Below, one piece after another: positions 2,697 to 36,021 of a DNA stretch of 41,351 nucleotides (its first letter is position 1; every line of letters starts with the position of its first letter). The translations under genes were made by a program, and so were the position numbers. Source of the stretch: a virus. Its lineage: Duplodnaviria > Heunggongvirae > Uroviricota > Caudoviricetes. Location: the IMG/VR virus record IMGVR_UViG_2541047933_000011; one strand, given 5' to 3'. The notes under the pieces were generated by a model, which had not been told where the DNA came from, did not search any database, and saw only the letters and a program-made list of their open reading frames with translations.

Positions 2697-3087
2697 CGTC
2701 TTTTCTCCCCGGAATTAACTCGCGTGGATTATCGGAACGGTGATAGAGCCATATACCAATACGCACAGCGACAATTGCTGACACGAATGCGCCTGCAGAG
2801 AAAACAATCCCTTTTTCAAAAGAGTCCTGCGTGATGGTAGGGATCAGGCTGGCTATGCCGATAAGAATTGATGCTGCTGGTTTGTAAAAGAGAAGGCCGC
2901 AAAGAAAGCTGAGCATCGACAGGAGCACCCGGCGACGGATGGGGTACTCTACTGCAGAGGTAACAAAAATTACCGCCCCAGCCAAAGCCCCTAAAGCAAC
3001 CTCCGGAGGGACACCTGCAATAACTGCAGCAAGAGAACCAAAACTAAGCAACTGATTTAATTGCTCACTTGTTACTTGAGCAGACAT
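2683..3087 (-). CDS. putative holin (about 3 TM segments)
   Basis: ATG 3087 with AGGAG RBS; three hydrophobic helices; first gene of lysis cassette. Confidence 0.55.
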   Translation of the reverse strand: MSAQVTSEQLNQLLSFGSLAAVIAGVPPEVALGALAGAVIFVTSAVEYPIRRRVLLSMLSFLCGLLFYKPAASILIGIASLIPTITQDSFEKGIVFSAGAFVSAIVAVRIGIWLYHRSDNPRELIPGRKDDGNA

Positions 3088-3368
3088 ACTTTCTCCTGTT
3101 TACTATCTATAAGCCAGTCAATTATTGATGACTAAACCCGCATAGTAAACCATATATGAATCATTATTGTTCCATATCATATATCTCAATAAAAGTACTA
3201 ATGATTTTACAGAACGAGCCAGCAGAGTGGGGGCAGTTGTACAGGAACCATAGACTTAATTTTGTATTTAATAATGCTATGGTGTAATAAACCTGAACAT
3301 GTATTTAAAATACGTACTGATTCATGATAGAATTCAAAGATAACTTTTCACCAACTCCGTTTTTGATA

Positions 3369-3395
3369 CCCGCAATATTTTGCGGGCTTTTTTTT
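3369..3395. terminator. stem-loop with flanking A/T runs at 3' end of tail spike gene (possible terminator)
   Basis: CCCGCAA-tatt-TTGCGGG hairpin followed by T9 on plus strand and preceded by A-run on minus strand. Confidence 0.35.
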
Positions 3396-6300
3396 AACGT
3401 TCTTCCAGAGACTGAACCCGCTCTTTTATCTTATCCATTTCTCTGCGCTGCCATGCTGCCTCGATATAGAATAAGAGATCAGGTCTGACCCCCCATCTAG
3501 ATCCTGCTGGCGTTATTTCAACGCGCTCAATGATGTCTTCTATTACCATCACTGGATTATCATCCTCATCAACAATGATGCTCCCGTCATTATCAGTCAG
3601 CGGCATTTCCCTTTGGCCAGTAATGACGTCATCATATACTGCGGGATAATCGTCATAGCAAAGAAAGGCATAGCGGCATGTTGTGCTTTCTTCTTCCATG
3701 AGTCCGTGAGAAATAAGAACATCACGAAGTTGCTGCGCGATTACACCATGATGTATCCTCGCCCCTTCTTCCCCCTTTATAGCGACAGCGTTCAGCCATT
3801 TATAAGCGATATACCTGACGTCACCCCAGGCATCCAGCAATGCTTCGTCAGGAGAGACCGGCTCTGTCTTTAATGTTCCGTCACTGGTAACCACAGGATT
3901 GGAGCCAAGATAAACTGTCGAGAACCTGTTTCCCGGACCACCAAGAGCATTTACATTATCAAGATAAGGTTTAACATCTCCGTTCTCAAAAAGATGTTCG
4001 AGTGCGTTATATACCGCGCGACGTGGAGTACTGCTTCCGGAACCATGCAACGTTATCATTGCACCATCTGCTGAAGACGTTGTTTCACCGCCGCTAACGA
4101 TTAATCTCTGAGCGGTAACATCATCAGACGGTACTTTCTTCGCAATAATGGCGTAATTACCCTCAAGTTTGACTTCCGCGCGAACTTGTCCTGATGTACC
4201 TGCATGGACAGTCAGTGACTGGACGGCAACATCATCTGTGAAATCAACGGGTACAGGAACCGTCCTCACGCCTGACGTCGACATAAAAGTAGGAAGCGTT
4301 CTGTTAGGAGTGGCTCCGTAGACAAAATCCCTTGAAACAAATTCTTCCTGTTTAATTTTCACCCTGAAACAATACAAATCAGCCGGGTGACCATCGTGAA
4401 CATAAGGATATTTTCTGTTGTTATCCCCTATGCTCCATGGGTTTAGAAAGTCTTCCCCACCGAAAATGTAGTACAGCCAGTTGTCTTTGATACAAACTGA
4501 ACCAACACCAACCGCAGAGTTAACTATTCCGCCCTGATAAATCTGATCAGTAACATTAACCCACTCTACATTATCCAGACTCCACTCATTGACGTTAACT
4601 CTGGTCATAAATGTTCTTGGATAATTTCCTGCATAACGGTTATCAGGCTCTCCTCCTTCCCACTCACCAAATGCGCGCTCACTGCCAAAAATAATCAGCT
4701 CATCGCCAACTTTGGCAAAAGGAAGGTTTGAGTGATGAACATTATTTGGGAAGCGAAGAGAATTCCATGATGTACCTAAATCAGAGCTTCTGTGCAATGA
4801 ACTACCGGGTTGAGTACTTAATGTCCCCCTGGTCGTCAGATACAGAATGCCATCATAATATTTTACACATGGCTCAGATGCATTCGCCTCATATTCTGCA
4901 GGTATGCGTCTGCGAACAAAGCTACCAGGAGAACCGAAAGCATCAGAGAAATAGAGTATCCCAAGCTCGCGTGGACCAATATCACCATTATGGTAGCCAA
5001 CAGCAAAACTGTTATCGCTAATCGTCGCAAAACTGTGAATCTCAGTAACAGGAGTGCTTCCGTCAACAAAAGAAGGAATAGTTCCAAGACTGGTTTTTCT
5101 CCATGGTGACGAGTGAAATGATGTACCAAAACTCCAGTATCTACCCTCGTTATTCTGATCCACATCCTGGGTATTTTGCGTCGTAACTGTAAAAGTATTT
5201 TTATCAATAACAGTAGTCACCGTCATATTCCCGGTAACACCTGTAACACCAGAGTTTGAGAAGTTGACAAAATCACCAGCAAATAATCCGTGATCAGTAA
5301 TGCGAATATAAGCGACTTGCTGATTTGCTGCTTTCGTTATACCACCATAAACGCGAAGGCTGCGACTCATTGGGCGATCCCACAACTCTGCAACCTGCAG
5401 TTTATTTCCGCTCACGGTCCGCGTCTCAATTACAGCAAAAAGGCGATTTCTGACAACCCCCATACTCATGCAGTGATAGTTAACTGTGGGATAGTTTTCA
5501 TGTAAATCTGTAAGCCATTCCGGCGTTGTCCAGGTCTTCCCGTCATCTCCTGAGCGAACCCATGCAACATGGAGGTTATTTACACCATGGCGGTCTCCAG
5601 CCATAAAAGGCGCATAGATGACATTGTCATATACAAACGTTTTATCCTGCGTCCAGGCGTTGTACCACGGTGTATCTGTAATTTTAAATAACTCTCCCTG
5701 GATAAAATCTTCAGAAGCATAAAAAAGAGGCTGGCCCGGTATTCTCTCAAATAAAAAACGAGCATTTTTAAATCGACTGACATCCGGAAGAGTTGATACT
5801 TTAAAAGTAAGCCCTAATCCGTCAATTTTATAACCTGGAGATGAGGCTTCAAGGCACGCGCTTATTGCAGTGGAATCGTCATTTATACCATCACCAACAG
5901 CTCCAAAATCTTTGGGGCTAATAGCATCACGCATTTTATCCTGGAACGTTCGGTACACAGCCCCAGAACCATACTGAATAAACCAACCAAAACCACCAAC
6001 AACCCCGGCGATTGCAGCATCGACATAATTACGCATTGAGCGATTATTTACAGCGTCCTGCTCAAATGATGGATCTGCAAGGTTAGAAATTTTGTTTTGC
6101 TTTGCATCGTAATATTTTGCAAGCAAAGATGGTTTCATCAATGCACGTCTGAACCACCCAAAACATTGCTGGATCAGCATCGTCAGGTAGTCAAAGGCAT
6201 CTTCATGCACTTCGGGGAAAAATTTTCCCTGATTGCGAAGGTCTGTCTCCTGCACCACATCAAGCACACGATCTATCGTAATTCGCCATCCAGCAGCAAG

Positions 6301-6513
6301 CGGCGACGGAAGAACAACAGAACCGCCACTATAAGTGCCCGCCCCAGTTACCGTATAACCGGTATCCAGTACTAGTTCTGTTACGTTACCGTTAAGGTCA
6401 GACACCTGAACAACCAGGTCGGATTTTTTGAAAATACGGAAGGTATACGGAAATGATGTCGTAACGCCGTTACCAGTGTATTCGTTGTGGTCAACTTCGG
6501 TTGAGACCGTCAT
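3394..6513 (-). CDS. tail spike: T7 gp17-like N-terminal adaptor, beta-helix/sialidase-like Asp-box region, C-terminal S74-type intramolecular chaperone domain
   Basis: 1039 aa; GGAG RBS; N-terminus YTGNGVTTSFPYTF; DFGAVGDGINDDSTAI pectate-lyase-like motif; Asp-boxes SGDDGKTW and SSDLGTSW; C-terminal GVIAQQL region. Confidence 0.8.
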   Translation of the reverse strand: MTVSTEVDHNEYTGNGVTTSFPYTFRIFKKSDLVVQVSDLNGNVTELVLDTGYTVTGAGTYSGGSVVLPSPLAAGWRITIDRVLDVVQETDLRNQGKFFPEVHEDAFDYLTMLIQQCFGWFRRALMKPSLLAKYYDAKQNKISNLADPSFEQDAVNNRSMRNYVDAAIAGVVGGFGWFIQYGSGAVYRTFQDKMRDAISPKDFGAVGDGINDDSTAISACLEASSPGYKIDGLGLTFKVSTLPDVSRFKNARFLFERIPGQPLFYASEDFIQGELFKITDTPWYNAWTQDKTFVYDNVIYAPFMAGDRHGVNNLHVAWVRSGDDGKTWTTPEWLTDLHENYPTVNYHCMSMGVVRNRLFAVIETRTVSGNKLQVAELWDRPMSRSLRVYGGITKAANQQVAYIRITDHGLFAGDFVNFSNSGVTGVTGNMTVTTVIDKNTFTVTTQNTQDVDQNNEGRYWSFGTSFHSSPWRKTSLGTIPSFVDGSTPVTEIHSFATISDNSFAVGYHNGDIGPRELGILYFSDAFGSPGSFVRRRIPAEYEANASEPCVKYYDGILYLTTRGTLSTQPGSSLHRSSDLGTSWNSLRFPNNVHHSNLPFAKVGDELIIFGSERAFGEWEGGEPDNRYAGNYPRTFMTRVNVNEWSLDNVEWVNVTDQIYQGGIVNSAVGVGSVCIKDNWLYYIFGGEDFLNPWSIGDNNRKYPYVHDGHPADLYCFRVKIKQEEFVSRDFVYGATPNRTLPTFMSTSGVRTVPVPVDFTDDVAVQSLTVHAGTSGQVRAEVKLEGNYAIIAKKVPSDDVTAQRLIVSGGETTSSADGAMITLHGSGSSTPRRAVYNALEHLFENGDVKPYLDNVNALGGPGNRFSTVYLGSNPVVTSDGTLKTEPVSPDEALLDAWGDVRYIAYKWLNAVAIKGEEGARIHHGVIAQQLRDVLISHGLMEEESTTCRYAFLCYDDYPAVYDDVITGQREMPLTDNDGSIIVDEDDNPVMVIEDIIERVEITPAGSRWGVRPDLLFYIEAAWQRREMDKIKERVQSLEER

Positions 6514-6616
6514 GTTAAATCTCCAGATAGTCGCAGCACCCGTTGCGCCGCATATCTGGTTATTCTATTACCTGAAAAACCACATATGGATAGAAAGACT
6601 GTGAATACGAATAGAT

Positions 6617-6633
6617 ATTACCTTTCGGGTAAT
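6617..6633. promoter_or_regulatory. operator-like palindrome ATTACC-tttcg-GGTAAT (perfect)
   Basis: exact 6-5-6 inverted repeat; 37 bp upstream of LexA box and 76 bp upstream of ATG 6709. Confidence 0.6.
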
Positions 6634-6669
6634 TTGCAAAACGTGCTGGATAGCAAACAAATTATTTGA

Positions 6670-6689
6670 TACTGTATAAATATACAGTT
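6670..6689. promoter_or_regulatory. LexA (SOS) box
   Basis: TACTGTATAAATATACAGTT: 18 of 20 matches to TACTGTATATATATACAGTA with CTGT-N8-ACAG intact; 20 bp upstream of ATG 6709. Confidence 0.7.
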
Positions 6690-6708
6690 ATTGCATGGAG
6701 AAGATAAG

Positions 6709-6966
6709 ATGCAGCAGTATCACTATCCACTGGAAGACGGATTTACCGAAAGGATTCACACGCCGGGAGGCGTCAGATCACTGGTGGAGGGATCGCACTT
6801 GATGAAATTACTCCGGGATCTCGATAAGGATGGATTTAATGTCGATGGCCCACTTGCCGAACTGACTGCACTGATTAACTACGTCACCAGCTCACAGATG
6901 TCTATGCAGGATCTGCAAACACATCTCGACTATTGTGCCGAACAATTACGAAAACAAACCACATAA
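6709..6966 (+). CDS. small protein homologous to the C-terminal domain of the Bro-N antirepressor (candidate SOS-inducible antirepressor)
   Basis: 85 aa; GGAG RBS 8 nt before ATG; about 36 percent identity over about 72 aa to the C-terminus of the 8112..8804 product (hand alignment). Confidence 0.6.
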   Translation: MQQYHYPLEDGFTERIHTPGGVRSLVEGSHLMKLLRDLDKDGFNVDGPLAELTALINYVTSSQMSMQDLQTHLDYCAEQLRKQTT

Positions 6967-6971
6967 AGAAA

Positions 6972-6989
6972 AGGCCGCTCTAGCGGCCT
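6972..6989. terminator. bidirectional stem-loop between convergent genes
   Basis: AGGCCGC-tcta-GCGGCCT hairpin overlapping stop of 6988..7716. Confidence 0.45.
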
Positions 6990-7716
6990 ATCGTTTCGCT
7001 TTGTGCTCGTCCCAGCACGTTTTGCACCATGCCATTAAGCCGTCCGCATTTTGATTATTAGGGTAAAAGCTAGTTCGTTTTCTGCGGACATTACAAATTG
7101 GGCACCACTTCATATGGCGTGTATTCTTTGGGCCATCGAGACACCTTGCACACCACTTAGTCAATCCATCTGGATTTTTTGACGATTTCCTGAATTTTTC
7201 ATATGGAAGGTTTATTCTGCATCGCAAGCACTGCTTGCTACCACTTGAAACTCTGTTAGCTGATTCTTCTTTTGGCGGCGATACAGAAGGTATTCTTGCT
7301 GGCTCTGATACTGCCTGAGGTGCTTTTTTAGATGACTGAGACGATATGTCATCACCAGGGAATCTTCCATGATATGCCGGACGCGTTGACACTCCGGGTG
7401 GAAGCTCAGCTGTAAACGGCTTTGGCTGAATCAGTTGCCTCTCTTTTGCTAACTCCTGCTGTTTATAATATGTCTGGATTACCGCGCTATCATAAGCAGG
7501 AGGTACGGAAATATTAGGCGCATTATCTCCCGTTTTTTGAAACTGAGTGGAGGTGTGTTCTATCACCTGTGTACGATTAATCGTTATCTCCCCATCTTCA
7601 GTCTTTATCGTTTTGTTATGATTAACGACCGTACGATCAGAGATCTTAGTCTTGTTCTGGTTGATAACGTAAATAATCACCGCAACCACACCAACAACTA
7701 CCCAGAAAACTTCCAT
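6988..7716 (-). CDS. membrane-anchored protein with C-terminal tandem zinc-ribbon (four CxxC pairs)
   Basis: 242 aa; strong GAGGAAAGG RBS; N-terminal TM helix; C-terminus CLRC...WCARC...WCPIC...WCKTC. Confidence 0.6.
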   Translation of the reverse strand: MEVFWVVVGVVAVIIYVINQNKTKISDRTVVNHNKTIKTEDGEITINRTQVIEHTSTQFQKTGDNAPNISVPPAYDSAVIQTYYKQQELAKERQLIQPKPFTAELPPGVSTRPAYHGRFPGDDISSQSSKKAPQAVSEPARIPSVSPPKEESANRVSSGSKQCLRCRINLPYEKFRKSSKNPDGLTKWCARCLDGPKNTRHMKWCPICNVRRKRTSFYPNNQNADGLMAWCKTCWDEHKAKR

Positions 7717-7735
7717 TGCCTTTCCTCACAATAAC

Positions 7736-7752
7736 ATTACCTTAAAGGTAAT
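7736..7752. promoter_or_regulatory. operator-like palindrome ATTACC-ttaaa-GGTAAT (perfect)
   Basis: exact inverted repeat 20 bp upstream of ATG 7716 (minus strand). Confidence 0.6.
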
Positions 7753-7800
7753 ATCTTGCTTTCAGGTGATCAAGCGTTAAACGCAATCAACCAAATACGG

Positions 7801-7830
7801 TTGATTTTAATATTTCTTCGCGTTTATCAT
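7801..7830 (+). promoter_or_regulatory. candidate sigma70 promoter (TTGATT-18-TATCAT) overlapped by operator
   Basis: -35 at 7801-7806, -10 at 7825-7830; operator 7829..7845 overlaps -10 and start region. Confidence 0.4.
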
Positions 7831-7845
7831 TACCTTTGCGGTAAA
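7829..7845. promoter_or_regulatory. operator-like palindrome ATTACC-tttgc-GGTAAa
   Basis: core TTACC-N5-GGTAA exact. Confidence 0.55.
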
Positions 7846-8111
7846 TTTACATCGCACTCCTCTTGTGCCATAGTAATCGGGCACTGGCAAAATCCAGTGC
7901 CGGGATTGGTCTCCCGGATTACTACAGAGGCACATATGCCGCATAAGCGGTTTTTTTATGTGTAAAGCGCACCTATTCTATGGTGGGCTGTGTGGGGGCA
8001 CCGAAAGGTGCGCCGGGTTCCTTTGTAGCCGGTAAGACCAACTCTGCACAGTTCACCACCATCTGATTGGTCTCAGCGGTGGTGATTAACCTAACTACAA
8101 AGGTGATCGCC
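7846..8111 (+). other. long structured non-coding leader upstream of Bro-N gene (possible attenuator or small RNA)
   Basis: about 265 nt without a credible ORF; hairpins at 7872-7897 and 7996-8011 (GAAA loop); CCGC-ataa-GCGG plus T7 at 7938-7957. Confidence 0.3.
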
Positions 8112-8804
8112 ATGAATACCAAACCTTCCATCTTTTCCTTTGAGTCATCCTGCCAGATCCGTATGTTCATGATTGACGGAGAACCTTGGTTTGTCACCAA
8201 AGATGTGTGCAATGCTTTGAATATTGATGTTACACAAGCGAGAAAACTTGATAAAAAAGGCTGGAACAAAAAGGGGCTGTATTCAATACAGACCCCTGGT
8301 GGAATACAAGAACTATCCATCGTTTCAGAATCAGGTCTCTACATCCTTATTCTGCGTTGCAAAGAGGCAATGACTGAGGGAACGAGAGCATTCAGATTTC
8401 TTGAATGGGTTACAGGTGAGGTTCTTCCTCAGATCCGCCGCACCGGAAGTTACATTAAAAACTCGCTCCCGCAGGAAGAACGCATAAAGATGGTTGCCGA
8501 CCAGGTAGCCAACGCCACAGCATCAGCAGTGATGCAGGCAATGAAGATAGAGAACAAAACCTACAGTGCCCCACTGAAGCCCGGCTACCGCAGCCTGATT
8601 CATTCTCCGTCTGGTGTTCTCGGCCTGACGGAGAACTCATTGCTTATGAATCTGCTAAACCAGTTACAGGAAGACGGGCACGACGTATCGGGCGCGGCGG
8701 CGGAGCTGACCACCATGTTCTGCTACATCGTCGGTGTGAGCAAATGCCTGCGTGATATCCAGACCCACGCGGAGTACATCAACGACAAGGCAGGGTTCTT
8801 CTGA
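8112..8804 (+). CDS. Bro-N domain antirepressor-like protein
   Basis: ATG 8112 with AGGTGA RBS; N-terminal FMIDGEPWFVTKDVCNALNI Bro-N motif; C-terminal domain paralogous to 6709..6966. Confidence 0.75.
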   Translation: MNTKPSIFSFESSCQIRMFMIDGEPWFVTKDVCNALNIDVTQARKLDKKGWNKKGLYSIQTPGGIQELSIVSESGLYILILRCKEAMTEGTRAFRFLEWVTGEVLPQIRRTGSYIKNSLPQEERIKMVADQVANATASAVMQAMKIENKTYSAPLKPGYRSLIHSPSGVLGLTENSLLMNLLNQLQEDGHDVSGAAAELTTMFCYIVGVSKCLRDIQTHAEYINDKAGFF

Positions 8805-8875
8805 CGGGCGGTGGCACAGGGACGTGCCTTTAAATAATTCTGTACAGATTGCAGACTGGGGGTGAATAGAGTACT

Positions 8876-8892
8876 ATTACCCCAAAGGTAAA
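8876..8892. promoter_or_regulatory. operator-like palindrome ATTACC-ccaaa-GGTAAa
   Basis: core exact; 26 bp upstream of ATG 8918. Confidence 0.55.
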
Positions 8893-8917
8893 CCGAGAGT
8901 TTACATGAGGGGGAAAC

Positions 8918-9106
8918 ATGGAAATCAACATCATTACATTGCTGAAGGCCATTATTGGCGGAGCGGGCTTAGGCTTTGCCCTACCAGGCGGATTATCTTT
9001 CCTGCTTCCTGCTTTTACTGTTACAGCTGGGATAGCCTATGCATTTGCTGTGGCTGGTGCTGTTGCACTCCCTGCTATCTATGCCGCAAAGAAGTTAGCC
9101 AACTAA
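8918..9106 (+). CDS. small hydrophobic Gly/Ala-zipper peptide (bacteriocin-like or membrane toxin-like)
   Basis: 62 aa; GAGGGGG RBS; N-terminal 15 aa ends in GG (MEINIITLLKAIIGG) followed by 47-aa hydrophobic glycine-rich segment. Confidence 0.5.
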   Translation: MEINIITLLKAIIGGAGLGFALPGGLSFLLPAFTVTAGIAYAFAVAGAVALPAIYAAKKLAN

Positions 9107-9107
9107 A

Positions 9108-9440
9108 ATGCCTGATTTATCTTGGCTTGCGCCCAGAGATGCACAGCAATTGACAAGGTTTTATTTCATACTGTGCATTGCTTATCTTGCTGTTCATCTG
9201 ATATGGGATGCCGTTTGCAAAGATACGCCTCCTTTTTCTTTGGATAAGTTGCAATACAAGATGAATGAGGTTTATTCATCATCTACTTTTGCAACCAGCG
9301 CATTCTTCATTGTTATTCTGTTCGATATGAAGAATCCACTGAGAACTTCAGATGCTTTCATATTCCCATTAATTATTGCTGCTCTAACTGGCTTTATGAT
9401 CTCATTATCAGCAATAGTGCCAAAGAAAGTAAATAACTGA
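9108..9440 (+). CDS. 3-TM membrane protein translationally coupled to the hydrophobic peptide (immunity or partner candidate)
   Basis: ATG 1 nt after upstream stop; three predicted TM helices; AT-rich. Confidence 0.5.
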   Translation: MPDLSWLAPRDAQQLTRFYFILCIAYLAVHLIWDAVCKDTPPFSLDKLQYKMNEVYSSSTFATSAFFIVILFDMKNPLRTSDAFIFPLIIAALTGFMISLSAIVPKKVNN

Positions 9441-9443
9441 ATA

Positions 9444-9466
9444 AGCCCGCGTTGCGGGCTTTTTTA
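9444..9466 (+). terminator. rho-independent terminator
   Basis: AGCCCGC-gttg-CGGGCT followed by TTTTT. Confidence 0.6.
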
Positions 9467-9537
9467 TGGACGAAACAAAAGTCAGTGCTACACTCATTGA
9501 CGCCACATCGAGGTGGCTTATAGATGGAAATGTCACA

Positions 9538-9699
9538 ATGAAAAAAGCATTTGCTGCACTGTTCGTTTTGTTGTCTCTGGTAGCTTCAACTCAGGCCTTT
9601 GCCGGTCGTTGTCAGCACGACAGCGATACTGCCGCTGACGGCTCCCGCTGCGGTGGGCGTTCTGCGGATTCCCGCCCGGGCGGCGGTGGCATTCGTTAA
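9538..9699 (+). CDS. small secreted Cys/Gly-containing peptide
   Basis: internal ATG gives signal peptide MKKAFAALFVLLSLVASTQAFA then about 31-aa mature peptide with 2 Cys; start and reality uncertain. Confidence 0.35.
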   Translation: MKKAFAALFVLLSLVASTQAFAGRCQHDSDTAADGSRCGGRSADSRPGGGGIR

Positions 9700-9704
9700 A
9701 AACA

Positions 9705-9727
9705 AGGCCGCGAAAGCGGCCTGTTTG
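9705..9727. terminator. stem-loop between convergent genes
   Basis: AGGCCGC-gaaa-GCGGCCT hairpin. Confidence 0.45.
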
Positions 9728-9728
9728 A

Positions 9729-10580
9729 TCACTGTGCAGTTTTCGCTGATCGATTTTCAGCTCTAAATTCAAGAACCGTTTCAATATTTCTTTCCTTCAG
9801 CATATCAATAACATTTTTATTCATTTGACTATCACTGGTTAATAACTGGTAAACGTTGCTTCTCTCTTTATCAGAATTTTCTTTAACAGCTGCTTTGCAT
9901 GCCAAATGCTTATTGAAATTTTCTACATCGCTAGTACAGGAATTTACGGCTGCTGATGAAATATCAGACGCTGAAGAAACACCATCATCCAAACGTTTTA
10001 TAGCATTTTCTATACATGAGTTAAGGGAATAAACGACAACTGAGCGATACCCTTCAGACGCACACCATTCTAAATTTCTTGAAGGATCGAGTGGTTTTAC
10101 TTCGCTGGATTGAATTAACTTGTCAAAAACTGACTTATATTCAATCTGTTTTTTATCTATAGCCCATACTTCAGTAGCTGATTTATAATTCCCCGTATGC
10201 CTATTAACATCAAATCCATGTTTTATAAGCAAATCTGCCCATGAAAGATTTATTGATTCATTGTTATGAGGCCATTTTCCTGTCAGAACCGCCCCCATAG
10301 ACCCCATATATCCGCCATATGATGGTATAGCACCATGGCTCAGTAACTTCTCAGCAACCACAGGGCAATTAATTACATAAGAGGCGTAAAGCCCATTCCA
10401 TAAAGCCCCTCTATAGTAATCGCCACGATTAGGTTCTTTTAAGTCGATAGCCTTTGATAATTGTTCACACGTTTTGCATGCATCAAAGTTATCCTTATTG
10501 CATTGCAATGAACTGGCGGCTGTAGGATTTACAGAGACTATTGAAAGCACTATGCCAAAAAACAAATTTATTTTTTTCAT
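9729..10580 (-). CDS. secreted protein with ankyrin-like repeats
   Basis: 283 aa; signal peptide MKKINLFFGIVLSIVSVNPTAASS; ankyrin-like segments (AEKLLSHGA; ADLLIKHGFDVNRHTG); AT-rich; starts 1 nt after stop of upstream virion gene. Confidence 0.55.
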   Translation of the reverse strand: MKKINLFFGIVLSIVSVNPTAASSLQCNKDNFDACKTCEQLSKAIDLKEPNRGDYYRGALWNGLYASYVINCPVVAEKLLSHGAIPSYGGYMGSMGAVLTGKWPHNNESINLSWADLLIKHGFDVNRHTGNYKSATEVWAIDKKQIEYKSVFDKLIQSSEVKPLDPSRNLEWCASEGYRSVVVYSLNSCIENAIKRLDDGVSSASDISSAAVNSCTSDVENFNKHLACKAAVKENSDKERSNVYQLLTSDSQMNKNVIDMLKERNIETVLEFRAENRSAKTAQ

Positions 10581-10581
10581 C

Positions 10582-13500
10582 CTATTTCATCTGCTCTTCA
10601 ACTTTATTTAGTAATGGTGATATCGCCCACAGATTCTGAAAAGGTAGCATTTTACGGACAGCGTGGGTTTGCTGGCTGTCAAATTCTCCGTTAAGTACAC
10701 CATTTGCAACCGTCGCGGCATCACCGCCAAGATCAAAGGTAGGACCAAGTAAAGCACCAATAGCATTACGACTCTGAAACCTTGATACCGGAGGCGCACC
10801 AAACATCGCGCCAAGACCAAACCTACCGCCGCTTATGTTCTCAACGGTATTCAGCGGCTCAGAGAGCCAGCCAAGCATTCCGCCCCGGTCGATCCCCTCT
10901 TTCACAAGGTTATTCCAGCTGTAGTCGATATCGCGACCGCTTAACTTCTGTTTCATCATATAGACCATTGAGCCAAGCGCAATCGTGCCAAGCGCACCAA
11001 GATAGAATGAAGCATCGCCCTGCTGGATACCAGATACCAACACCCTGTTATGCTGTGCGAAGATAAACGTTTTGAACTGCGTGATCATCTTCCAGCCTTC
11101 TTTACTAAAAAACAGCGGTGTATCACCTACGCCAGGCGTTACAATCACTGAGTCTACATCTTTCAGCACTGCAGACTGGAAAATCTCTCTAGCGAAACGG
11201 TCATCCCACAGATGACTATGCCCGGTTAACAGCCCGTCCATATCCTCTCCGTGCTTCCCGAATTGCTCCCCGATTCGGCGCAGAACATCTTCATTGATGC
11301 CGACCTGTGCCATCTTCCGCATTTCACTTTTGGCGAGCGTGCCACCAGCAGAAACCTGGCGAGCCGCGTCAAGTATCCTCGACTGCACTATCATCCCGGA
11401 CCATGATTTAAGTGCGCTGTTCCACTGATTCATCAGCGTCCAGTTACCGAATTTCTGCGTCATCCAGTTCAGGCCTCGCTCAGCGGCGCTTCTCCGGCTA
11501 TAGGGGTCAGTAAGATCCGCTATAGCCTTTGTACGCGTAGACAGGACATAATCAAGCCCAACGGCCATTTCTCGCAAATCCCTGGTTGCAATTTTCACTG
11601 AGTCCATATTTTTAAGCATGCTTACCATTGGTCCGAGAGATTTTCTCAGGCCATGCTGCATCATCGGTCGCATCAGATCAGTTGCAGCGGAGACGGTCAT
11701 TCCACCAAGCAAACGGAGGAAGTTAATATTCCTAGCAACTCGCCCGGCACGAACAAAGAAACTGCGTGGATCTTGAGGTGCGCCGTAAGTACCAAGCAGT
11801 CGGTCACGCATAGCCGTAATATCCCTAATATCAGCCTCCCGTTGCTTCTCAAGAGCTGCACGTCGTTTAGGTGTTTTAGCCTCTTTTATTAGCCGGGTAT
11901 ATTCCTCACTAACCTGACGGATTTGCTCCCCCATATCTTTACGGCCAAACTGCGCAGTCAGCTCAATTTCTGGTGCCACCTGCCGGAGATAACTTTCCAT
12001 GATGTAGTTAACATCTGATTCAAGAAAATCTTCTATACGCTCATCAGGAATAAGCAGCGTTCGGCTTTTAGTGAAACCAGCCCGACCAACGAGTCTCTCT
12101 GGGATAATATCGGCTGGTACAAGCCCGGAAGGTGCGCCTATTATTTTATTCACGATCTCGTCAGCAGCGTCCTCTGCTTCCTCTCGGGATAGAGGCTCCA
12201 TCTGCTTCAGTGCTCGCTCGCGGCTTGCATTCAGCCTTGTGGTTGAATTTGCCCGTTTTTGCAGTCGGCGAAGCTCAGAACGATATTTCCGTGGATTATC
12301 CAGCAACTCCATATGGCGCTGATAGACAGGAAGCTCACTCTTTGCCTGCGCTATATCATCAAGGCGTGTTTTAAGGTCAGAGCTTTCTTTCATCATTCTT
12401 GCCTGAAGTTTTTCTGATGAAGTCTCGGCCAACTCTTTTTCTATTCTTGTAAGACGCGCCTGTGTGTCAGTCTCCTGAGATATAAGCTTATTTCGTTTAT
12501 CCAGTTCTTCCATGAGTAGAATTTTTTTACCAGACCATTTCTCCGCTTCAGCGATTTCACTAGCGAGAGCATCAGCGCGCGGTGCCGATTCCTCTGCAGT
12601 TTTTAGCAATGAATTTATCCTTTCAATTCGCTGACCTGCTTTGTCAGCACCTTTGGCACTAATCCCTTGTATCCAGTTGGCAATTCGCCCTCTGAATTCA
12701 GTGCGGTCGGAAAGTATCTTATCGAACTTATAAATGCGGGGAAGATAACTTTTCGCCGTCACGACATCGATATCCTCAGGAAGGATCCCCAGTTCCTGCA
12801 TACGGGCTTTTGTGGTCTCGAAAATGGGGCGGATTCTGGCGGCTGCTTGTGAAACCTCAGGAATATCACTCTGATCACCACGGCGCATAGCCATGCCAAC
12901 AGCTTCATTGAAATCAATAAAGCTCATCCTCTTCACGCCGCGGGCGCTGACAGATTTGCTGTACTGCTGGTAAGCATCACGAGTGGCTTCCATCTGCTTA
13001 TAAAGCATGGCGTCGTATTGCTTAATCTTAGTCTCGACTGCCGTAAACGTAGCCAACCCCTCATCATTTTTGGCGAAGAAATAGTTATTTTCGGCAAGCT
13101 GCTGGTTAATCTGACGGGAGACAAGAGATGGTGATTGCGCCAAGCGGCCAGCAGGAGTGACACTCAACGTTTTGTTAGCAAGTCCAAGTCCAGCGAGCTG
13201 TTCCTGATCGAGTGTGGTATTGAAAACCTGAGCTGCACCAATGCTTTGAGGAGAATCCATACCTCGCAAATGATTACCTACTGAGTTAACCACTGCCTCG
13301 CGCGCGCTAGGTCCAGCAAGTAGCTGTGCACCAGCACCAAGGATCCCACCAACGAGAGCATCAACAACAACGTTCGATACGCTCTCCATCGGTGAGCGAG
13401 CTTCCTGAGTGGCCTGCAATGCGGCCTCTGAAGCAACACTGCCAGCAGCATTGGCTAAAGCAAAACGTCCGGCTGTTTCTGCAATACGACCGCCACGAAC

Positions 13501-13971
13501 GACAGCGCCGAACGGAATAAACATAGAAATCGCATTGAATGGATCTGCTAATCTCATTGCTACAGAAGAGACTGTACCAGCAAATCCCAAGCCTGAATTG
13601 TATTCCATGTCAGCTCTCTGCTGATCGATTCGATGTTTAATTGCCATTGTTTCTTCAGGCGAACCGGAGTTGATAAACGAATCTGCAAAATCTTCATAGC
13701 CTTTAATATCTGCTGCATCGTTATCAAATGGGTTATATCCTTCAATCCTGTCAAACTGACTGAAAGGAGCACTGGCAATAAAGCTACCCAGCGTGTTATC
13801 TATACGAAATGCTGCTTGTCTAGACCTTTGAACGCGTTGATCACTGGTAAATGGGTTCACAGCAGAAAGCAAAGAAGGTGTTTCCATATAGAAATTACTG
13901 TCATCAGGTGCTGCTATTTGCTGAATATCCTCGCCAAGCAACTCTTTAGGATCCTGTTCATATATCGGCAT
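10582..13971 (-). CDS. large virion/internal (ejection-type) protein
   Basis: 1129 aa; start overlaps upstream stop (TAATG); position in structural operon. Confidence 0.7.
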   Translation of the reverse strand: MPIYEQDPKELLGEDIQQIAAPDDSNFYMETPSLLSAVNPFTSDQRVQRSRQAAFRIDNTLGSFIASAPFSQFDRIEGYNPFDNDAADIKGYEDFADSFINSGSPEETMAIKHRIDQQRADMEYNSGLGFAGTVSSVAMRLADPFNAISMFIPFGAVVRGGRIAETAGRFALANAAGSVASEAALQATQEARSPMESVSNVVVDALVGGILGAGAQLLAGPSAREAVVNSVGNHLRGMDSPQSIGAAQVFNTTLDQEQLAGLGLANKTLSVTPAGRLAQSPSLVSRQINQQLAENNYFFAKNDEGLATFTAVETKIKQYDAMLYKQMEATRDAYQQYSKSVSARGVKRMSFIDFNEAVGMAMRRGDQSDIPEVSQAAARIRPIFETTKARMQELGILPEDIDVVTAKSYLPRIYKFDKILSDRTEFRGRIANWIQGISAKGADKAGQRIERINSLLKTAEESAPRADALASEIAEAEKWSGKKILLMEELDKRNKLISQETDTQARLTRIEKELAETSSEKLQARMMKESSDLKTRLDDIAQAKSELPVYQRHMELLDNPRKYRSELRRLQKRANSTTRLNASRERALKQMEPLSREEAEDAADEIVNKIIGAPSGLVPADIIPERLVGRAGFTKSRTLLIPDERIEDFLESDVNYIMESYLRQVAPEIELTAQFGRKDMGEQIRQVSEEYTRLIKEAKTPKRRAALEKQREADIRDITAMRDRLLGTYGAPQDPRSFFVRAGRVARNINFLRLLGGMTVSAATDLMRPMMQHGLRKSLGPMVSMLKNMDSVKIATRDLREMAVGLDYVLSTRTKAIADLTDPYSRRSAAERGLNWMTQKFGNWTLMNQWNSALKSWSGMIVQSRILDAARQVSAGGTLAKSEMRKMAQVGINEDVLRRIGEQFGKHGEDMDGLLTGHSHLWDDRFAREIFQSAVLKDVDSVIVTPGVGDTPLFFSKEGWKMITQFKTFIFAQHNRVLVSGIQQGDASFYLGALGTIALGSMVYMMKQKLSGRDIDYSWNNLVKEGIDRGGMLGWLSEPLNTVENISGGRFGLGAMFGAPPVSRFQSRNAIGALLGPTFDLGGDAATVANGVLNGEFDSQQTHAVRKMLPFQNLWAISPLLNKVEEQMK

Positions 13972-26014: not shown

Positions 26015-26031
26015 ATTACCTTTCAGGTAAC
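26015..26031. promoter_or_regulatory. operator-like palindrome ATTACC-tttca-GGTAAc
   Basis: core exact; 90 bp upstream of ATG 25925. Confidence 0.55.
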
Positions 26032-26352
26032 CAAAGGGCTCATTCTGGTTACTAACCTGACTGGCTTGTCGTTAAATTAAACAGGTGGAGTGAGCTTTTA
26101 TTTTGAGCAGTACGGCGTATGGCACATGCGCCGATAGCGGTCTGGATACGTTTAAGGGGCACCCTCCCTTGCTCGGGCAAACGAACCAGGTAGCCGGAAT
26201 GTGCAAGTCGAGCGGTTTTATTCCGCGCACGGGGATTCACCATCCCGGCGATTCGGTGTGACGCCTCGGAAGAGACGAGGGTACAACGATGAGAGCATTT
26301 ATGGAGCCGCGACAAAGTGTGGCGCCTTAACAGGCTAAGTGCTCTCAGCGTT

Positions 26353-26429
26353 GTGGCATTAGCTCAGTTGGACAGAGCAACCGCCTTCTAAGCGGTTGGT
26401 CGCAGGTTCGAATCCTGCATGCCACGCCA
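26353..26429 (+). tRNA. tRNA-Arg (anticodon UCU), phage-encoded
   Basis: 77 nt; acceptor stem GTGGCAT/ATGCCAC; D-arm GCTCAGTTGGACAGAGC; anticodon stem ACCGC/GCGGT with loop CTTCTAA; T-arm GCAGGTTCGAATCCTGC; 3' GCCA. Confidence 0.85.
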
Positions 26430-34980: not shown

Positions 34981-34997
34981 ATTACCTTTGAGGTACG
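34981..34997. promoter_or_regulatory. degenerate operator-like palindrome ATTACC-tttga-GGTACg
   Basis: one core mismatch. Confidence 0.4.
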
Positions 34998-35365: not shown

Positions 35366-35382
35366 TTTACCTGTTGGGTAAT
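35366..35382. promoter_or_regulatory. operator-like palindrome tTTACC-tgttg-GGTAAT
   Basis: core exact; 55 bp upstream of repressor ATG. Confidence 0.55.
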
Positions 35383-35436: not shown

Positions 35437-36021
35437 ATGAAAAGTATCCAGGACGTCCGCAGGCAAAATCTCAACGACTTGATCGACCGTGAATTCAATG
35501 GTGTTCAGACGCGGATGGCAGAAAAACTTGGAACTCAGGCAAATCTGGTAAACCGCTGGGCTCTTGGCAAGAAGGTTATCGGCGACCAGGTTGCACGAAA
35601 AATTGAAGCTGCCGCCAATAAACCCCGTAACTGGCTTGATATTGATCGTTCGCTTTCTCAGGAGGGTTTTCAGCCTGTCGGCCCGAGCGATATAGGTCAG
35701 CTGGCGGCTCACAACCTGGAACGCTGGATGAGCGAAAGCCGCGACCTTTCAACACAGGGAAAACTTCACCGCGCATCCGGCGTCGCCCAGGTGACAATCA
35801 GCCGCCTGTTAAACAATGAGGTCAGCGTTTCCATTTCCACTCTGGAGAATGTTGCATCCGCATTCGGGCGTCACGGATATGAACTACTGATTCACCCGCA
35901 CGACCCTGCGACTATCAACTATGACCGCTCACGCTACGCATTGTTACCCGAAACCGAGAAAGCAAAGATCGAAAGTTACATTGAATTTGTCATCAACCAG
36001 AACGAAAAAAGCAAACAATAA
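35437..36021 (+). CDS. prophage repressor candidate with two XRE-type HTH domains and no peptidase domain
   Basis: 194 aa; HTH-1 QTRMAEKLGTQANLVNRW, HTH-2 SGVAQVTISRLLNNEVS; no S24 Ala-Gly/Ser-Lys region; no strong SD. Confidence 0.6.
   Translation: MKSIQDVRRQNLNDLIDREFNGVQTRMAEKLGTQANLVNRWALGKKVIGDQVARKIEAAANKPRNWLDIDRSLSQEGFQPVGPSDIGQLAAHNLERWMSESRDLSTQGKLHRASGVAQVTISRLLNNEVSVSISTLENVASAFGRHGYELLIHPHDPATINYDRSRYALLPETEKAKIESYIEFVINQNEKSKQ

Follow-up and report, generated by a model that had tools for sequence, protein, structure and literature searches.

A variable, probably secondary immunity region with two predicted antirepressor genes and exchangeable cargo in a phiV10-like Escherichia coli prophage

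The viral record IMGVR_UViG_2541047933_000011 (41,351 nucleotides, hereafter the window) is a podovirus prophage of Escherichia coli K1 that belongs to the epsilon15/phiV10 group (genus Uetakevirus and relatives). We describe here a 4-kb block of mixed orientation within it (positions 6514-10580), flanked by the tail spike gene and by a virion gene of 1129 amino acids (aa). This block is, with good probability, a variable secondary immunity (antirepressor) region with exchangeable cargo cassettes, in which two antirepressors that share one repressor-binding domain would be placed under separate controls. An earlier interpretation made from the letters alone, the sequence-only reading, had proposed an accessory island in the position of the immI region of phage P22. 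All the elements that it listed were recovered at or near the places where it had put them (Table 1), and the position, between the last internal-virion gene and the tail spike gene, is indeed that of P22 immI.

The first antirepressor gene, ant, had already been described as an antirepressor-domain gene behind a LexA box, and both parts of that description hold. Its product aligns with the Ant protein of phage SPC32H (PDB 5D50_E) over 84 residues (residues 2-85, E 1.3e-47), to which it is 88% identical (alignment A1), and it matches phrog_450 with E 1.4e-47. The entire window contains just three CTGT-N8-ACAG sites, the LexA box among them. From the end of this box to the ant ATG the distance is 19 nucleotides (nt), a value found again in 11 of the 13 related loci examined, SPC32H being one of these; it is 20 nt in two loci and 115 nt in Tyrion, and no LexA box was found at the ant gene of the Klebsiella phage. 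Since ant is the ortholog of SPC32H Ant and its LexA box lies at the same distance, it can be regarded as a member of a known and experimentally characterised system. In SPC32H, as far as the citing text relates, self-cleavage of LexA allows Ant to be made, and Ant inactivates the repressor through protein-protein contact (Kim and Ryu, 2013, cited in PMC7380047); according to a summary of the structural work, a tetramer of Ant binds to two dimers of Rep and disrupts the tetrameric form in which Rep binds DNA (PMC9638917). By analogy, ant would be held off by the host LexA in the lysogen, and the removal of LexA upon DNA damage would allow Ant to be produced, to bind Rep and to induce the prophage.

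The presumed target of both antirepressors, and presumed binder of the operators, is the main repressor Rep, whose gene lies outside the block. Its Pfam domains belong to helix-turn-helix (HTH) families only, with no S24 peptidase. The protein is 99-100% identical in the window, HEMP4, phiV10, EC.W1-9, ZX5, TL-2011b and strain C25, and about 43% identical to SPC32H Rep (tblastn). The palindrome TTACC-N5-GGTAA, with at most one mismatch, occurs 15 times in the whole window against 0.67 expected, a number that no shuffle reached. The four operator palindromes that the sequence-only reading had counted in the block are indeed there as exact copies (6618, 7737, 7830 and 8877). However, the motif is not confined to the island: outside it the window has seven further exact copies, concentrated at the repressor gene, and palindromes are found on both sides of rep (exact at 35367, 36078 and 36140, with one mismatch at 34982 and 35319) as well as in front of other operons (26016, 29179, 32981 and 33043). 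The motif comparison used the SPC32H genome and not the published SPC32H operator; in that genome five copies flank rep and one adjoins ant. In the window as in SPC32H and seven other loci, the copy beside ant ends 76-77 nt ahead of the start codon. Moreover, the island sites are kept in position in relatives and are absent from six C4 loci that are not epsilon15-like. From its position and conservation we interpret the palindrome as the operator of Rep, probably shared with the Cro-like protein.

Among the island sites, that at 7830 keeps its place in phiV10, TL-2011b, Tyrion and the Klebsiella phage; the 7737 site is present only in relatives with the 242-aa cassette, and the 8877 site is retained irrespective of the cargo downstream. 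On the minus strand, the 6618 site has TTGCAA on one side and a weak -10 on the other, both directed at the tail spike gene, an arrangement that might represent a promoter. Because putative Rep operators lie beside the 242-aa gene, cargo slot 2 and the tail spike/ant intergenic region, these units would probably be silent in the lysogen, and they would be switched on once Rep is inactivated. Three of the four sites, next to the 242-aa gene, to the promoter of the RNAs and antirepressor and to the 62/110-aa pair, suggest that these genes would be repressed in lysogens and would not be lysogenic-conversion genes.

The second predicted antirepressor carries a Bro-N domain fused to an Ant-like domain. 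Its residues 149-225 match SPC32H Ant (5D50_E, E 9e-14) and its C-terminus matches the Ant family phrog_450 (E 3e-37). Furthermore, relatives sharing Rep carry N-termini of either the Bro-N or the AntA/AntB type on an almost identical Ant-like C-terminus; the C-termini of the lambdoid antirepressors controlled by C4 are unrelated to this domain. An Ant-like C-terminus on the Bro-N protein implies that a Rep-binding module would be encoded twice in the block, under two different controls. In ZX5, a relative with the same Rep, overexpression of the Bro-N anti-repressor cut prophage titres from 1e9 to 1e6, in a report that mentions neither LexA nor the isrK/C4 RNAs (PMC9782041).

The Bro-N antirepressor with a long leader that the sequence-only reading had recognised is thus present, but two RNAs in that leader had been missed. 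The leader, of about 230 nt, holds an isrK-type small RNA and a C4 antisense RNA, both above the gathering score when the window was scanned against Rfam. The start of the isrK model is 7 nt past the predicted promoter, whose -10 block TGTGCCATAGT is kept in relatives; the c4-a1b1 family (RF03163) overlaps isrK at 39.9 bits, under its gathering score of 46.7. Folded alone, C4 forms a long stem with two internal hairpins and leaves its segments a' and b' unpaired. The target a2 overlaps the Shine-Dalgarno sequence of the Bro-N gene, AAGGTGA, and ends 8 nt from the ATG (8112). The duplex of a' with the Shine-Dalgarno region (8094-8109) has a predicted energy of -15.4 kcal/mol, and the C4 core with the leader one of -28.5 kcal/mol, reached by 5 of 1000 shuffles. 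In the minimum free energy fold of the read-through RNA 7879-8125 (-104 kcal/mol, z = -5.75), a1/b1 of isrK are paired in cis with a'/b' of C4, a modelled pairing which suggests that isrK may compete for C4. As a separate observation, GGTGGTGA at 8078-8085 repeats the 5' half of the closing stem of C4 and could compete for TCACCACC at 8053-8060.

Of 19 related loci scanned, 18 have the isrK-C4 tandem at the head of the corresponding operon; the set includes phiV10, TL-2011b, Tyrion, a Klebsiella phage, APSE-1, VT2-Sakai and Gifsy-1. The gene that follows is annotated as an antirepressor or Bro-N protein in 16 loci (Gifsy-1, VT2-Sakai and APSE-1 among them), and not as an antirepressor in SfV ('immunity region') or in Hafnia phage yong2 ('Ash family protein'). 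Among 11 non-redundant loci, a' and b' differ, and a1/a2 and b1/b2 change in step with them: the longest Watson-Crick run between a' and the leader averages 7.9 nt for cognate pairs versus 4.6 nt for non-cognate ones, and the cognate pairing sum was reached by none of 100,000 permutations (p about 1e-5). In nine of these loci a2 ends 8-16 nt ahead of the start codon (8-12 nt in eight), the two without a clean a2 call being the Klebsiella and IdasGreatGrand loci. Such covariation of a' with a2 is what we take as the signature of a working antisense system.

In E. coli E70 (locus 2810-3300), the island skeleton and the Rep-operator promoter are unchanged, but isrK and C4 are absent, with no Rfam match at E 0.1; in their place, a 94-aa open reading frame (ORF) of the TacA family, of the ribbon-helix-helix type, overlaps the start of the Bro-N gene and may be a protein regulator replacing an RNA one. 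In E. coli SCU-204 (locus 3100-6150), two inverted isrK-C4-antirepressor modules with different C4 types lie within 3 kb, which suggests a rearrangement or a recombination of two related prophages.

Taken as a whole, these elements would define the following control. The Bro-N::Ant-like gene would belong to an operon headed by the isrK-type RNA and the C4 antisense RNA, and Rep would bind the operator adjoining its promoter. Most transcripts would stop at the isrK terminator; in those that read through, a'/b' of C4 would pair with a2/b2, cover the ribosome-binding site and leave the antirepressor untranslated. The isrK RNA, in turn, would act as a decoy, with a1/b1 copies able to compete for C4.

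The comparison with other genomes, which had been called for in order to see whether the block is variable, shows it to be highly so. Region 6000-11000 matches Escherichia phage EC.W1-9 at 98% across 71% of its length, and phiV10, TL-2011b, ZX5 and others piecewise; the island is found at 99.8% identity in one E. coli urine isolate, and some part of it in 570 of 5426 complete E. coli genomes, only 6 of which hold at least 80%. In the annotated relatives the skeleton runs from the tail spike through ant, slot 1, isrK-C4-antirepressor, slot 2, the 53-aa peptide and slot 3 to the virion gene. Slot 1 contains either the 242-aa gene or a YafO toxin pair; slot 2 the 62/110-aa pair, DUF2335, a YafO pair, DUF4760 or others; slot 3 the 283-aa gene or smaller ORFs, starting 1-10 nt past the virion gene. 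The same slot of SPC32H holds just a 46-aa ORF and ant. This nearly empty slot, together with the swapping of contents among the E. coli relatives, indicates that the block is dispensable for virion assembly, and not conserved and essential in all relatives.

Such variability of content, with YafO toxin-antitoxin-like, DUF2335 and DUF4760 cargo, would also suit a moron island, whose chief role would be the expression by the lysogen of genes that benefit the host (superinfection exclusion, defence, surface or periplasmic functions), the antirepressors being incidental. The location of the 62/110-aa pair at a classic moron position in lambdoid prophages fits this idea, as does the 53-aa peptide, which lacks an operator, has terminators on both sides and bears the PHROG label 'moron'. 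Nevertheless, it is ant, isrK/c4 and the antirepressor that make up the conserved skeleton, and the cargo that varies; two of the three cargo sites have a putative Rep operator beside them, and that of slot 2 is kept with any cargo, which would point to repression in lysogens. Moreover, no cargo protein matches the PADLOC defence models. We thus consider a moron island improbable as an account of the whole block.

Even less can be said for the possibility that isrK/C4/Bro-N is a decaying or repurposed remnant, with a Bro-N protein that no longer acts on Rep (but binds DNA, say, or targets the repressors of other prophages) and a C4 devoid of regulatory role. The three-way a/b complementarity is maintained in an allele-specific manner, which requires ongoing selection, and the Ant-like C-terminus is nearly invariant among phages sharing Rep. 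A copy such as that of phiV10 (gp23/gp22, locus 5895-6574), broken off within the Ant-like domain and annotated as two ORFs, would suit decay, and the functions of Bro-N proteins are diverse and poorly defined; in the window, however, the ORF is intact and both RNAs fit their models end to end, and the overexpression result in ZX5 (PMC9782041) points the other way. This leaves the remnant very unlikely.

Finally, it is scarcely credible that the block is a P22-type immI, with an antirepressor under Mnt/Arc ribbon-helix-helix repressors and sar and an exclusion gene like sieA: the shared position between internal-virion genes and tail spike, the Arc-like gene, Ant and sar match of TL-2011b in this slot, and the TacA-family ribbon-helix-helix ORF that replaces isrK/c4 in E70 would accord with it, but the window has no sar (RF00262) match at gathering score with a model that does detect the sar of TL-2011b, no Pfam match, and so no Arc/Mnt, in the seven small island ORFs scanned (each of at least 53 aa), and 17.6 bits for P22_AR_N against a cut-off of 30.7, the controls found being the LexA box, putative Rep operators and C4/isrK. 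As far as can be judged from the letters, P22-type immI is refuted for this window, and with it the parallel in content that the sequence-only reading had drawn, there being no sar RNA and no P22-type Ant; its remark that no Arc/Mnt-type small repressors are visible agrees with the Pfam scan of these small ORFs.

Several points weigh against a secondary immunity region built as proposed here. The truncation of the phiV10 copy shows that the second antirepressor module is dispensable for at least one viable phage. No ORF of the icd or orf45 type lies between C4 and the antirepressor gene (8063-8112), so that the coupling mechanisms of P1 and Gifsy-1 do not necessarily extend to the window. Since the short IsrK RNA of Gifsy-1 acts as an activator of antirepressor translation (PMC4825925), the net sign of isrK in the window is uncertain. 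The palindrome has been assigned to Rep solely by position and conservation; furthermore, the promoter scan listed no promoter for the 242-aa gene or cargo slot 2, where the candidates are weak matches seen by eye only. More generally, what can be read directly is the identity of the parts, the complementarity and covariation of the RNAs, and the distribution and conservation of the motifs; we infer from them the transcripts and expression states, the binding between Rep and the antirepressors, and the induction and other phenotypes of this prophage.

The C4 alleles lend themselves to a further proposal. Citron and Schuster reportedly described in 1990 that P1 and P7 share C1 and differ in c4. 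In the phages studied here, at least three a'/b' types occur on Rep backgrounds at least 99% identical, the C4 targets being CTACAAAGG and TTGGTCT in the window and EC.W1-9, CTAAAAGG and TTGGCGT in phiV10 and TL-2011b, and CTAAGTGG and TTGGT in strain C25. We put forward, tentatively and with somewhat less than even confidence, that in the widespread phiV10-like E. coli prophages the immunity groups would be set by the C4 allele, Rep being near invariant, and that the operator-guarded site after the antirepressor gene would be a dedicated, repressor-controlled cargo slot. Under this proposal, a relative that superinfects with a non-cognate C4 would produce its Bro-N::Ant-like protein, whereupon the resident Rep would be inactivated and the resident prophage induced, much as P7 induces a P1 lysogen. 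Toxin pairs, membrane peptide pairs and other cargo would, in turn, be exchanged at the operator-guarded site.

Table 1. Features of the block and of its surroundings in the window
Feature	Coordinates	Strand	Remarks
Tail spike	3394-6513	-	K1 endosialidase, all Pfam endosialidase domains
Putative Rep operator TTACCTTTCGGGTAA	6618-6632	.	Exact motif; divergent tail spike/ant intergenic region; ends 76 nt before ant ATG
LexA box TACTGTATAAATATACAGTT	6670-6689	.	CTGT-N8-ACAG; consensus match at 18/20 positions
ant, 85-aa SOS-controlled antirepressor (predicted)	6709-6966	+	Ortholog of SPC32H Ant
GC-rich hairpin between convergent ant and 242-aa genes	6972-6989	.	Terminator-like, T run on minus strand
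Cargo slot 1, 242-aa protein	6988-7716	-	N-terminal membrane anchor, variable Pro/Gln-rich linker, two C-terminal zinc ribbons
Putative Rep operator	7737-7751	.	21 nt upstream of 242-aa gene start codon
Putative Rep operator	7830-7844	.	Abuts -35 of predicted isrK/c4/antirepressor promoter
Promoter (predicted)	7846-7874	+	TTTACA, 17-nt spacer, CATAGT, upstream TG; promoter scan
isrK-type small RNA with a1/b1 sites	7881-7957	+	RF01394, 74.7 bits vs gathering 50, full length
b1 TTGGTCT	7906-7912	+	Copy of b2 inside isrK; exact
a1 CTACAGAGG	7922-7930	+	In isrK; pairs with a' over 9 bp including one G-U
Intrinsic terminator of isrK	7938-7957	+	
C4 antisense RNA	7976-8063	+	RF01695, 78.6 bits vs gathering 45, model positions 1-87, full length
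C4 loop a' GUUCCUUUGUAG	8017-8028	+	
C4 segment b' AAGACCAAC	8034-8042	+	
Target b2 TTGGTCT	8067-8073	+	Complementary to b', 7-nt Watson-Crick run
Target a2 CTACAAAGG	8095-8103	+	Complementary to a', 9-nt Watson-Crick run
Second antirepressor (predicted), Bro-N fused to Ant-like domain	8112-8804	+	Pfam Bro-N, E 2e-13
Putative Rep operator	8877-8891	.	Ahead of cargo slot 2
Cargo slot 2, 62-aa Gly/Ala-rich hydrophobic peptide	8918-9106	+	phrog_13406 / phrog_36716 matches for the pair
Cargo slot 2, 110-aa membrane protein	9108-9440	+	1 nt after 62-aa ORF
Intrinsic terminator after cargo pair	9443-9461	+	8-bp stem, 6 GC pairs, then T run
53-aa peptide, signal-peptide-like N-terminus	9538-9699	+	phrog_14503, E 2e-40
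GC-rich hairpin between convergent 53-aa and 283-aa genes	9705-9722	.	
Cargo slot 3, 283-aa protein, signal-peptide-like N-terminus	9729-10580	-	ATG 1 nt after virion gene stop
1129-aa virion gene	10582-13971	-	Match to PHROG of internal virion proteins
rep, main repressor, outside block	35437-36021	+	PDB 5D50_A (SPC32H Rep), E 3.5e-42

As for the cargo itself, the 242-aa product corresponds well to the membrane protein with tandem zinc ribbons that had been announced: it has a single hydrophobic segment (residues 1-22), and its family, confined to Enterobacterales, keeps this anchor and, beyond a variable linker, two invariant CxxC...WCxxC units (Cys 163/166/189/192 and 205/208/231/234, alignment A3). 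It matches phrog_6762, with weak matches to the zinc regions of endonuclease VII and Lar. The zinc ribbon of PacI was considered as a relative and set aside, the profile search against PDB giving a non-significant E of 0.2 and no significant solved relative.

The peptide and transmembrane protein paired in slot 2 were likewise confirmed. In lambdoid Enterobacter prophages the two genes again stand 1 nt apart, lodged between the lysis cassette and the terminase genes, and the pair would thus be a mobile two-gene unit that passes from one phage type to another, unrelated one. The N-terminal 15 residues of the 62-aa peptide (MEINIITLLKAIIGG, 8918-8962, +) loosely resemble a double-glycine leader. 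A bacteriocin with the 110-aa protein as immunity partner was considered and is left as speculation, since the leader fits the consensus only partly and no exporter lies nearby.

The small secreted peptide of the sequence-only reading is the 53-aa ORF, kept in nearly all relatives and annotated as WP_000708858 in 8 related loci; having no operator, and a possible promoter of its own (TTGACG-16-TATAGA), it may be expressed constitutively. The 283-aa protein would be secreted, as had been said, judging by its N-terminus; the ankyrin-type similarity also claimed for it is weak, and its structure model is all-helical (mean pLDDT 76). Its family is small (22 clusters). The gene is probably a late one, for only 1 nt separates its ATG from the stop codon of the 1129-aa virion gene; devoid of an operator, it would ride on the late operon, of which the hairpin at 9705-9722 is likely the end. 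No match to NCBIfam or PADLOC models was obtained for any of the seven island proteins, so that no known defence system can be assigned to them.

Terminator-like hairpins, of which several had been noted, number 11 against 3.8 +/- 1.8 expected. The small overlapping or antisense ORFs of the island, which gave no Pfam match, are provisionally treated as non-coding; two of them, 7973-8320 (-) and 7756-7965 (+), overlap the RNA genes. The neighbouring tail spike combines beta-propeller, beta-barrel, stalk and S74 chaperone domains, joined to a phiV10-like N-terminal adaptor that carries unrelated receptor-binding modules in relatives. Elsewhere in the window, a tRNA-Arg(UCU) gene (26353-26429, +) lies about 320 nt downstream of the TTACC-N5-GGTAA site at 26016, which is preceded by a consensus TTGACA (26016-26429, +), and may be under repressor control.

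If the proposed organisation is correct, it offers a testable wiring diagram in which a DNA-damage input, from LexA to Ant, and an RNA-gated input, from C4/isrK to the Bro-N::Ant-like protein, would converge on one repressor. The region would be, at the same time, a hotspot of cargo exchange behind a conserved, putatively repressor-controlled site, in a prophage family that about one in ten complete E. coli genomes carries, K1 and Shiga-toxin-producing strains among them. In RefSeq these loci are annotated with nothing more than 'hypothetical protein' and 'BRO-N domain-containing protein', which leaves both RNA genes and the regulatory sites invisible at present.

Among known systems, P22 immI (mnt, arc, ant, sar, sieA) resembles the block in genomic position and as an antirepressor-based second immunity region with accessory genes, although none of the P22 regulators was found here and the control logic differs. 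In TL-2011b (locus 7600-8800), an Arc-like gene, a P22-type Ant and a sar match (RF00262, 44.8 bits against a gathering score of 43) occupy the same slot; this phage also has the isrK/C4/Bro-N module, and hence three antirepressor genes.

The Rep-Ant system of SPC32H (Kim and Ryu, 2013; Kim et al., 2016; PDB 5D50) shares with the window the phage group, the slot beside the tail spike, the distance from LexA box to ATG, an HTH-only Rep homolog and TTACC-N5-GGTAA sites near ant and flanking rep. Unlike the window, it has neither a second antirepressor nor cargo in the slot; that the slot also lacks isrK/C4 was deduced from the lack of room, the locus not having been scanned against Rfam.

With immI of P1 and P7 (c4-icd-ant1/2), the likeness lies in a C4 antisense RNA transcribed ahead of the antirepressor gene that it represses, or here would repress, with targets upstream (a1/b1) and downstream (a2/b2), the latter covering the ribosome-binding site; in an operator of the main repressor, here putative, at the operon promoter; and in C4 alleles that differ among phages sharing one repressor. 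In P1 and P7, C4 is released from its precursor by RNase P and acts in trans, and it is the specificity of C4, and not that of the repressor, that decides whether an incoming relative expresses its antirepressor in a lysogen. In P1, transcription of c4-icd-ant is under the repressor C1, but ant is fully repressed only if the C4 antisense RNA acts as well (PMC8198154; PMC8546580). Whereas P1 and P7 have an icd-like ORF, here there is none and a2 covers the Shine-Dalgarno sequence of the antirepressor itself; the antirepressor is Ant1/2 in one case and Bro-N with an Ant-like domain in the other, and a plasmid myovirus contrasts with an integrated podovirus prophage.

The isrK-orf45/STnc1160-anrP locus of Gifsy-1 (Hershko-Shalev et al., 2016, PMC4825925) likewise combines a terminated isrK RNA, a C4-family RNA and an antirepressor gene, and it scores for both Rfam families; moreover, the cis isrK-C4 fold modelled here resembles the translationally inactive 'structure A' of that work, and a separate LexA-controlled antirepressor has been reported in Gifsy-type prophages (PMC3121763). 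In contrast to the window, Gifsy-1 has a coupling ORF of the orf45 type and an antirepressor of a different family, and the lambdoid loci lack the Rep operator that is putatively present here at the promoter; the window has two antirepressors side by side sharing one domain. Every regulatory part belongs to a known family, and since a literature search found no paper joining Uetakevirus, phiV10 or SPC32H with isrK or C4, the combination appears undescribed for this phage group. One locus would in this manner link three experimentally studied systems, namely the Rep-Ant pair of SPC32H, immI of P1 and IsrK of Gifsy-1.

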